Shown: one piece after another, positions 25,709-42,079 of the stretch
How the letters are laid out: each line of letters begins with the position of its first letter
How positions within the stretch are numbered: the first letter of the stretch is position 1
Virus record (IMG/VR): IMGVR_UViG_3300049988_000286
Location: 32,001 to 96,000 of that record
DNA length: 64,000 nucleotides
Source of the DNA: a virus
Lineage: Duplodnaviria > Caudoviricetes
Strand: one strand, 5' to 3'
Notes under the pieces: model-generated
Seen by the model: the letters and a program-made list of their open reading frames with translations, nothing else
Database searches by the model: none
What the model was told of the DNA's origin: nothing
Made by a program: the position numbers and the translations under genes

Positions 25709-26272
25709 GTGGTGGTGACAAGTACGAGCACGTGGTCGGTGGTGATGCACAACACCAGTAAGGTGGCTCCGCCGCCATACGTCCACACGGTCGAGCGTGA
25801 TGGTCTGCGCGCCATGCGGCTCACTTGGTGGCGCATTAGAGGCTACAAGAACGACATCAACCCCGGTGTTGATGCCCGATATGAGCGTCGGGGATGGCTT
25901 GGTCTCACCGCCACGAACATGAGCGACCACGAATTCCGCGAGATCAGAAAGTGGTTCCGCGAGCGCGAGGGCGCGTGGGTATCGAAGAGGATCGGGGATT
26001 GTGACGAACCCCATATCCGCGAGATGATCGGCGAGTATGAGGATCACTGCGTGACGATGTGGTTCGCAACCGAGGCTCTCCTTGATGCCTTTGTCGAGTT
26101 CCTCAAGGCGTTTCCCGTCCGCGACACCGCCCTCCTGATCTCGCGCTCGGCTGACGTGCGCCACCTCATTACCGGAACCAATTTCCGGATCATCCGAGGC
26201 CGGGATCACGCGCTGCTCGCCATCACCGATGAAGTCGATGATACCTCTCGTATGCTGTTGCGCCTGATCTAG
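25709..26272 (+). CDS. hypothetical protein with paralog-family-like motifs
   Basis: KWFREREG; DDTSRMLLRLI. Confidence 0.6.
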   Translation: MVVTSTSTWSVVMHNTSKVAPPPYVHTVERDGLRAMRLTWWRIRGYKNDINPGVDARYERRGWLGLTATNMSDHEFREIRKWFREREGAWVSKRIGDCDEPHIREMIGEYEDHCVTMWFATEALLDAFVEFLKAFPVRDTALLISRSADVRHLITGTNFRIIRGRDHALLAITDEVDDTSRMLLRLI

Positions 26273-26487
26273 TCCCAGAGATCAGCGAGGGCATTCACTG
26301 CCTCCATGACAACCGCGAAAGCGAGCCCGGCGACTACTGCACCGATGACAGTCACGATCACGCCGATCCAGAACAGGATAAGGAGCGGGATCGTGATTGG
26401 TGACAAACAGAGAAAGAAGCGGCGAAGCCAGCGCGGCCAAGTCGCCGGTGAGGCGATGTCGAAGATTTGGTTGAGGAAGTCGATCAT
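26269..26487 (-). CDS. small membrane protein
   Basis: long hydrophobic segment. Confidence 0.6.
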   Translation of the reverse strand: MIDFLNQIFDIASPATWPRWLRRFFLCLSPITIPLLILFWIGVIVTVIGAVVAGLAFAVVMEAVNALADLWD

Positions 26488-31713: not shown

Positions 31714-32166
31714 CTAGGTGAGCCAACAGAGGTGAGCGCAAACATCGAGGGCCAATCCCCGGTCGATGAGGCGGCGTGAGACCCACGGTGGTTTAGCCCA
31801 GAACAGGGTCGCATCCTTGGGTTTGATCGCCAAGCACCATTCTGTGAACAGGACTGCATTGTCGATTACCAGTTCATACTGGGCCGCGCCGGAAAAATCA
31901 TCGGTGAGCACTCGATCGGTCCGGAGCTTCTCCGGCACCCCACCCTCATAGACCTCATCGTTGATGATCACGGTGCGCGGCGGGAAGATACTCTTTCCCC
32001 GCCATTGCATCGCTGGCGCGTAATCTCTGGGCGTGTAGGCGGACTCTCGCTCGATATGCCAGCGTATCGCGGCCATCAGATCATTGATCGCGTCCGCTGC
32101 GGGATGTTCCAAAGCGGTGTGGATATCGTCGCACAGCGTAAGATCGATGATCGACAGATCGCTCAC
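31714..32166 (-). CDS. hypothetical protein
   Basis: coupled to the upstream gene. Confidence 0.6.
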   Translation of the reverse strand: MSDLSIIDLTLCDDIHTALEHPAADAINDLMAAIRWHIERESAYTPRDYAPAMQWRGKSIFPPRTVIINDEVYEGGVPEKLRTDRVLTDDFSGAAQYELVIDNAVLFTEWCLAIKPKDATLFWAKPPWVSRRLIDRGLALDVCAHLCWLT

Positions 32167-41400: not shown

Positions 41401-41536
41401 GGTGTCATGTGAAGGTTGTTTGGGGCTTATTACAGTCCATCTAACGGCTGGTGTAATGGCCAGTCTATCGACCGTGGGAGGTGGTGACCCACCAGTAGTA
41501 ATATTGTATGCACCATGGGGGCGGGGAACCGCCCCC
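41401..41536 (+). ncRNA. possible small structured RNA
   Basis: GGTG(T)CAT/ATGCACC and TATTAC/GTAATA stems, two hairpins, then GGGGGCGG-GGAA-CCGCCCCC. Confidence 0.3.
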
Positions 41537-41546
41537 TAAATAGTAC

Positions 41547-41628
41547 GGGCTAGTATCGCCGCCGTTTTCTAAACGGTCGTTAAAAGCGTAATTGGAGTAT
41601 GCGGGTTCGAGTCCTGCCTAGCCCGCCA
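41547..41628 (+). ncRNA. D-armless tRNA-like RNA, TCT (Arg) anticodon, long variable region
   Basis: GGGCTAG/CTAGCCC-G-CCA; GCCGT-TTTCTAA-ACGGT; GCGGG-TTCGAGT-CCTGC; starts 4 nt after TAAATA. Confidence 0.7.
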
Positions 41629-41629
41629 T

Positions 41630-42079
41630 CTATCGACAGCGTTTCAGAATCCTGATCGTAAACGCGCCGCCGCCGTGCTTCTCCACGCAGGAGTGAACGC
41701 GCGGCAGACCTTCCATCCATCGCTCAAATTCACGCCTGATCTGGCCCGACTTGCCGGTGATAATCGTCATCGACTTCCGGCCAGAATTCTCCACGAAGTC
41801 GATCGAGGCCCGGTAGGCATCAGTGACGGTGAGGCCATGTAGATCGAGCGTGGAGGGCGATACTGGCAGGGGGATGGGTGCGTGAGGCTTTTGGAGAAAA
41901 CGGCTCGCGACCGGGCGCTCCGCCAGCGCTTTGGTGATCTGGGCATCAAGGGCCAGCGTCTCTGTAAATTGCGCACGAAGTTCCCCCTCCGTCAGGGGTC
42001 GAACCTGTTCAGCGCTGCTACGCTCCAGAGGCTTTACAGTTTGCTTGACCGCCGCCCACCATTGATCGCCTCTGTTCAT
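41630..42079 (-). CDS. Smr/MutS2-domain protein
   Basis: LDLHGLT...IITGKSG...GGGAF. Confidence 0.85.
   Translation of the reverse strand: MNRGDQWWAAVKQTVKPLERSSAEQVRPLTEGELRAQFTETLALDAQITKALAERPVASRFLQKPHAPIPLPVSPSTLDLHGLTVTDAYRASIDFVENSGRKSMTIITGKSGQIRREFERWMEGLPRVHSCVEKHGGGAFTIRILKRCR

Follow-up and report, generated by a model that had tools for sequence, protein, structure and literature searches.

Can an RNA with the acceptor, anticodon and T arms of a tRNA and no D hairpin serve translation in a bacteriophage, when D-hairpin-less tRNAs are taken as an oddity of animal mitochondria? The question is raised by a gene on the + strand of a 64,000-nt stretch of Caudoviricetes megaphage DNA (hereafter the window; positions 32,001 to 96,000 of IMG/VR record IMGVR_UViG_3300049988_000286), which an earlier note, made from the sequence alone, had described as a D-armless tRNA-like RNA under a late promoter. 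The RNA gene is 82 bases long (41547-41628). Its acceptor stem, GGGCTAG (41547-41553) with CTAGCCC (41618-41624), has seven of seven pairs and is followed by G73 (41625) and an encoded CCA (41626-41628). The connector UAU (41554-41556) holds look-alikes of U8 and A9 plus a U, and reads TAT in 141 of the 149 distinct copies of the family introduced below. The next four bases, CGC plus C (41557-41560), are the 5' strand of a long-range helix that continues into the 5-bp stem of the anticodon arm GCCGT/TTTCTAA/ACGGT (41561-41577), where TCT (UCU in the RNA) occupies 41568-41570. A conserved 7-nt bulge, CGUUAAA (41578-41584; family consensus CRUUAAN), then leads to the 3' strand of that helix, A plus GCG (41585-41588), which was assigned by covariation. 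The strand UAAUUGGAGUAU (41589-41600) is a look-alike of the tRNA-Arg D-loop, with an A14-like A, G18 G19 and A20, and is followed by the T arm GCGGG/TTCGAGT/CCTGC (41601-41617), with a 5-bp stem and the loop UUCGAGU.

Several of these features are canonical for a tRNA, namely the 7-bp acceptor, the discriminator, the CCA, U33, a purine at 37 and the 5-bp T stem with a GTTCRANYC-type loop. The region between the acceptor and anticodon stems is only 7 nt (TATCGCC), and 23 nt (41578-41600), with AATTGG inside, separate the anticodon stem from the T arm. All of the items listed in the earlier note (acceptor, G73-CCA, T arm, TCT hairpin, 7-nt gap, 23-nt region with AATTGG, and an upstream TAAATA) are present in the sequence. 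The Rfam tRNA model RF00005 matches 41547-41625 with 29.3 bits, marginally above its gathering score of 29, and with a window-level E-value of 0.05. Its alignment deletes the D-arm positions, setting 4 nt against 15 model positions, and the hairpin between positions 9 and 26 is absent from the RNA. Sequence and alignment together support a tRNA-like RNA whose anticodon is UCU and whose D-arm hairpin is missing. ARAGORN did not call the RNA at 41547-41628, while it called six other tRNAs in the window. As a single sequence the RNA is weak (folding z-score of -1.0, no better than shuffles), which counts against reading it as a working tRNA; it is nevertheless far beyond chance, because all four helices covary across 149 distinct homologues.

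These homologues belong to a widespread family. When 1.6 kb of sequence surrounding the element was compared with GenBank phages by BLAST, 207 records matched, including Streptomyces phage Yaboi, Escherichia jumbo phage 121Q and Erwinia phage Ep030, and the alignments covered about 75 bases of the element only, at 80-86% identity. With the enterobacterial version as the query, 256 GenBank phage records were matched, including Felix O1, wV8, PBECO4, Sugarland and many phages of Phapecoctavirus size. No fewer than 256 GenBank phage genomes carry the 81-82-nt design, as do hundreds of contigs from viruses and metagenomes. Scans of IMG/VR, metagenomes and prokaryote genomes with a pattern that left the anticodon free found the element at 86 IMG/VR loci and at least 120 metagenome loci. 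The prokaryote genomes, one for each of 185,579 species, yielded only four contigs with it, all from metagenome-assembled genomes, so the family is essentially confined to phages, and the hosts of the phages that carry it span Proteobacteria and Actinobacteria. A D-arm lost by recent deletion had been named beforehand as the result that would speak against the RNA; the comparison of homologues indicates no such deletion, as hundreds of them have the same plan. GenBank annotation under the matches is mostly absent, occasionally tRNA-OTHER, tRNA-Undet, tRNA-TERM or an overlapping protein feature, and in the Yaboi/121Q/Ep030-type matches the element is either unannotated or called tRNA-Val(aac) or tRNA-Leu(taa). 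This probable arginine tRNA family, built on a three-armed plan, is missed or mislabelled by standard tRNA finders. The literature searched, including a 2020 review of non-canonical tRNAs (PMC7609411), contained no description of the design; coverage was incomplete, and an earlier report may exist.

Some members depart from the common form. A divergent relative with a UCU anticodon and the strand UAAUUGGAUAGAACAU (L033:13347-13429) shares its contig with a family member reading CCU, so there are probably further sub-families outside the search patterns. Another copy (L090:6119-6183, - strand) has the 5' two-thirds only, ending after GUAAUU, and is probably a truncated or interrupted gene. HNH endonuclease genes are dispersed in the Felix O1 tRNA cluster (L308:5653-6045, Felix O1 26003-26395). 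One of them probably has a mis-set start, since the annotated start overlaps the 3' end of the element, and such homing genes might aid the spread of the element.

The structure of the RNA emerges from the comparison of copies. All share one register, comprising 7 acceptor bases, UAU, CNN+X, the anticodon arm, CRUUAAN, Y+NNG, UAA(Y)UGGAGUAU, the T arm, 7 acceptor bases and the discriminator. In 27 diverse copies the proposed partners pair in 94.7% of cells, compared with 69% after shuffling and 33-45% with the partners slid, and 16 of the 21 pairs, including all 7 of the acceptor, display double-sided changes. The 15 most strongly covarying column pairs across the 149 distinct copies are all proposed pairs, 12:41, 13:40 and 14:39 among them. 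Column pair 12:41 is UA in 83 copies, GC in 36, AU in 24 and CG in 6, and 13:40 is CG in 125, GC in 15 and UA in 9; both are Watson-Crick in all 149 copies, and the long-range helix occurs in 12 types. The acceptor, anticodon and T stems and the long-range helix (nt 11-14 with 39-42) therefore all covary across the family and, because the long-range helix encloses the anticodon hairpin, the RNA is a three-way junction. RNAalifold recovered the three main helices and did not predict the long-range helix from energy, so it is covariation that supports the fourth helix; its shortness (3-4 bp) counts against a working tRNA. A mutual-information search for tertiary pairs in the 149 copies returned nothing outside the helices. 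Two other sets of pairings were considered and rejected: a hairpin within the 23-nt region and UUAA:UAAUU pairings have partners that are invariant or already in the covarying helix, and pairing of CUC with the GAG of GGAGUA fails for CGC, CAC, CGG and other helix types.

The 12-nt strand before the T arm, UAAYUGGAGUAU, is very similar to the D-loop sequence of ordinary tRNA-Arg in phages (AAYUGGAUA), and it is kept also in copies found with a pattern lacking it. The A directly after its GG is invariant in the family; it sits in this strand rather than in a D-loop and may match A20 in space. Several invariant columns were imposed by the search patterns. In particular, TTAA was fixed in the anticodon-free pattern and CNTTAA in the other, so conservation of the bulge is not independent of the patterns. 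The label 'D-armless' thus holds in that there is no D hairpin, and fails in its mitochondrial sense, as nt 11-14 pair with 39-42 in a covarying helix. Likewise, the 'variable region' does contain the D-loop-like AATTGG that had been pointed out, and the label is incomplete, the strand being an invariant look-alike of the tRNA-Arg D-loop with GG and then A. Given the covarying helix and the look-alike strand, the parts of the D arm look rearranged, not lost.

Arginine identity in bacteria is set by A20, C35, U or G36, and A or G73 (PMC9976931). The anticodons of the 149 distinct copies are UCU (136), CCU (5), ACG (4), UCG (3) and ACU (1), that is, arginine anticodons from both arginine codon boxes in 148 copies, and C35 with U or G36 in every one. 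The only non-arginine anticodon, ACU, lies on a 1-kb metagenome contig (L215, - strand, reverse-strand position 853) and counts against the reading as a working tRNA. The discriminator at position 73 is a purine in 142 of the 149 (G in 85 and A in 57, with U in 6 and C in 1), the window copy having G, and 101 copies encode CCA. The anticodon loop is most commonly CUUCUAA (117 of 149) and is UUUCUAA in the window copy. Three paralogues, with ACG, UCU and CCU, share one contig, and a further contig has both a UCG and a UCU copy. No encoded arginyl-tRNA synthetase (ArgRS) was found in the megaphage genome.

The company that the element keeps indicates which place it occupies in a tRNA set. Of 44 distinct loci that combine a UCU element with at least 10 ordinary tRNAs, just 2 (5%) include a tRNA-Arg(UCU) of the ordinary kind, compared with tRNA-Arg(ACG) in 48% and common tRNAs in 50-89% of the same loci, whereas loci with an ACG, UCG or CCU element do have an ordinary Arg(UCU). 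Counting against this, an ordinary and a non-canonical arginine tRNA of identical anticodon occur together at L222/L193, L293, L154, L187 and L273. The chance-hit loci without the element held no tRNA clusters, and for this reason the pair formed by Felix O1 and Shigella phage Sf14 serves as the control for element-free clusters. The tRNA clusters of these two phages are collinear. The interval between tRNA-Ile(GAU) and tRNA-Ser(UGA) is occupied by the element in Felix O1-type phages and by an ordinary 77-nt tRNA-Arg(UCU) in Sf14 (gt010, NC_042075.1 15811-15887), and the sequences flanking it on either side are clearly homologous. AGA is the commonest arginine codon in both, at 41.8% in Felix O1 and 48.7% in Sf14. 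A paper on the tRNAs of Sf14, which has the ordinary form, mentions no odd structure (PMC12482277).

The megaphage copy has surroundings of its own. T4-type late promoters place a TATAAATA-like box a short distance ahead of the start site, and CTAAATA at 41536-41542 (+ strand; TAAATA, 41537-41542) is a box of this type in its enrichment and spacing. The window has 11 copies of CTAAATA where 1.46 are expected, a seven-fold enrichment, and TAAATA occurs 171 times in the complete 499.6-kb genome, followed by ATG at exactly 4 nt in 76 cases and at 5 nt in 27 (103 in total). Four bases (GTAC) separate the box from G1, which is the spacing that the phage uses for leaderless starts (76 of the 171 TAAATA boxes) and bears out the late-promoter placement proposed before. 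Among the 42 tRNA genes of the genome, the element alone has a late box at this spacing. Transcription of the megaphage copy probably starts at or next to G1, with little or no 5' trimming, and the placement of the promoter makes it plausible that this copy is transcribed without a leader and needs no RNase P. Leaderless transcription is not a trait of the family, since elsewhere the element lies within tRNA arrays, a few bases from its neighbours, and must be cut out. Abutting the late box is a hairpin with 8 bp of G+C and a GGAA loop (41517-41536, + strand, identified from sequence and fold), which is probably the terminator of the upstream + strand genes; no T run follows it, and a terminator scan found nothing there.

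ARAGORN called 41 tRNAs in the complete genome, including Arg(ACG) twice and Arg(CCU), and none of the 41 is an ordinary Arg(UCU). AGA makes up 3.4-3.6% of the arginine codons of the megaphage, which counts against the element as a working tRNA, and no AGA enrichment was seen in its late genes. The genes downstream are on the opposite strand and encode a small Smr-domain protein (149 aa, 41630-42079, - strand; Pfam PF01713, 32 bits), which ends right beside the element, and a cell-wall hydrolase. Synteny followed through the upstream 403-aa ORF led to a single distant locus (L310), where there is no element.

Other unusual tRNAs and tRNA-associated genes were encountered in the same genome and in related clusters. 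About 5 kb before the window lies a second RNA without a D hairpin (L301:1501-1591, genome 26889-26979), with the acceptor GCGGCAG/CTGTCGC, the connector UAUUCCC, the anticodon loop UUCCGAU (CCG, arginine), 32 nt with UAACUGGAAU, a normal T arm and U73-CCA. To judge from its anticodon, it would fill the CGG slot in the arginine set of the phage; it has no clear long-range helix, and BLAST against GenBank phages gave no match. Next to it, a 91-nt tRNA-Arg(ACG) with a normal D arm and a long extra arm (L301:1595-1685, genome 26983-27073) adjoins an ordinary 77-nt tRNA-Arg(ACG). Outside the window, at genome positions 102238-102314, 106351-106425 and 402970-403045, lie two tRNAs of the amber suppressor type, with CUA anticodons, and one tRNA call whose anticodon loop has eight bases (tcca). 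A gene for a Ro-like/DUF2828 RNA-binding protein immediately precedes the tRNA clusters in Felix O1 (L308:1768-3183), Sf14 (L309:12570-13985) and Yaboi (L313:2557-4182), and occurs in phages with or without the non-canonical tRNA.

Four independent lines, namely the anticodons, slot filling, replacement in place and AGA demand, point to what would be a working arginine tRNA. We consider it likely, judging from comparative sequence analysis, that the gene is a tRNA-Arg reading AGA that is built on a three-way-junction plan with rearranged D-arm parts. The 3-4 bases after the U8-A9-U connector pair 3' of the anticodon hairpin and thereby lengthen the anticodon arm. In the proposed mechanism, the extra helix would stack below the anticodon stem in the place of the D-stem, giving 5 + 1 + 3 pairs and a possible U-U layer, or about 10 layers as in an ordinary tRNA, and the bulge would run along the extra helix as a variable loop does. 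The GG of the 12-nt strand could dock on the T-loop to form the elbow, and the A after it could act as A20, in which case the host arginyl-tRNA synthetase might charge the RNA through A20, C35, U36 and G73. EF-Tu and the ribosome would then use the charged RNA like other tRNAs. For the megaphage copy, a late promoter of its own would set the 5' end at or beside G1, and the CCA is encoded. A broader proposal, which we put forward tentatively and with more doubt than confidence, is that phages evolved and spread a topological rearrangement, with the anticodon arm nested in the D-stem and the D-loop placed just before the T arm, in which the L-shaped core, A20 and the elbow are rebuilt, and that it was selected as translation-competent yet evading host enzymes or defences that recognise an ordinary D arm.

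Different roles for the same RNA have to be weighed against a working tRNA. It could be a tRNA-Arg look-alike that does no decoding and serves as a bait or sponge, its target being perhaps a host nuclease or a different factor directed at arginine tRNAs. The anticodon loop, which is of exactly the host type, shows very strong conservation, the altered body could block normal use, and a few genomes keep ordinary and non-canonical versions of the same anticodon; tRNA-targeting defences and phage tRNA countermeasures are known (PMC10264068, PMC11464382). Yet a bait predicts co-occurrence with the ordinary tRNA-Arg(UCU), and replacement is what was observed, in 95% of the tRNA-rich loci and at the Felix O1/Sf14 site. 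Considering also that 42% of Felix O1 arginines use AGA and that the charging features R73 and CCA are kept in the family, we regard a bait as unlikely. Charging could instead be poor or with an amino acid other than arginine if A20, the chief determinant for ArgRS, were not properly presented, and AGA would then be recoded or slowed. The pocket bearing A20 in the D-loop is indeed rebuilt, and annotation tools either leave the isotype undecided or get it wrong (tRNA-OTHER, Undet, Val, Leu, TERM). Against this, the restriction of anticodons to those for arginine (C35 plus U/G36) in 148 of 149 copies is hard to explain unless ArgRS reads the anticodon, and GGA is kept even where the search did not require it, which makes mischarging very improbable.

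A role outside translation (as a primer, as a regulator, or in partnership with an RNA-binding protein, Ro-like or not) or decay into a tRNA pseudogene appears very improbable and is the least probable of these readings. The Ro-like/DUF2828 genes upstream of the Felix O1 and Yaboi tRNA clusters would suit such a partnership, whereas Sf14 has the Ro-like gene yet an ordinary tRNA-Arg. Failure of ARAGORN to recognise the RNA would suit either a non-translational role or a pseudogene, but decay is ruled out by strong purifying selection with compensatory change in every helix, in phages of both Proteobacteria and Actinobacteria, and a role outside translation gives no reason for arginine-only anticodons. 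A working tRNA-Arg that reads AGA thus remains the preferred reading. If it is charged and used, then bacterial ArgRS, EF-Tu, RNase P, the CCA-adding enzyme and the ribosome would all accept a tRNA without a D hairpin. Direct bench testing is possible because the family is present in classic culturable phages (Felix O1, wV8, PBECO4/121Q and Sugarland). Because the element is mostly unannotated or misnamed, this predicted AGA decoder is absent from the tRNA sets listed for hundreds of phages and from analyses of their codon supply. For the engineering of orthogonal tRNAs, a body that is compact and rewired by nature could be of interest as well.

In function the nearest relatives of the element are ordinary tRNA-Arg(UCU) genes, and in shape they are the D-armless tRNAs of mitochondria. 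With an ordinary tRNA-Arg(UCU) such as gt010 of Sf14, the element shares the 7-bp acceptor, R73, CCA, the loop CUUCUAA, the T arm GCAGG/UUCGARU/CCUGY, the AAYUGGA motif and the genomic slot. It differs in having no D hairpin, in a D-stem-like helix that encloses the anticodon arm, in a three-way instead of a four-way junction, in a D-loop-like strand placed between the long-range helix and the T stem, and in the added conserved 7-nt bulge. The inferred start of the megaphage transcript recalls Nanoarchaeum equitans, in which promoters are reportedly set so that tRNA transcription starts at position 1 and RNase P is unnecessary (Randau et al. in 2008 are said to have described this). That is a genome-wide archaeal trait, whereas here it would concern one tRNA gene of 42, with a start site predicted from the promoter. 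With the D-armless mitochondrial tRNAs, of which mammalian mt-tRNA-Ser(AGY) and nematode mt-tRNA-Ser(UCU) are examples (PMC7609411), the phage RNA shares the lack of a D hairpin, the short connector after the acceptor, an extended anticodon arm and a three-armed structure. The mitochondrial molecules are shrunken and flexible, with weak or short T arms, no GG/T-loop elbow and specialised organellar factors. In contrast, the phage RNA, at 82 nt, is longer than a normal tRNA, has an invariant GG and a canonical UUCGA T-loop, and must work with bacterial machinery. The 2020 review of natural non-canonical tRNAs places D-armless forms in mitochondria only and includes no phage case (PMC7609411). 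Other non-canonical tRNAs of bacteria are tRNA-Sec, tRNA-Pyl and the allo-tRNAs, which are likewise natural, are functional despite a cloverleaf that is not 7/5, and in some cases come from phages and metagenomes (PMC5389517; PMC7609411). They have altered stems (8/5, 9/4, 8/4, 9/3) or loop sizes and keep the D hairpin (PMC5389517; PMC7609411), and none of them has its D-loop 3' of the anticodon arm, where the look-alike strand of the phage RNA stands.
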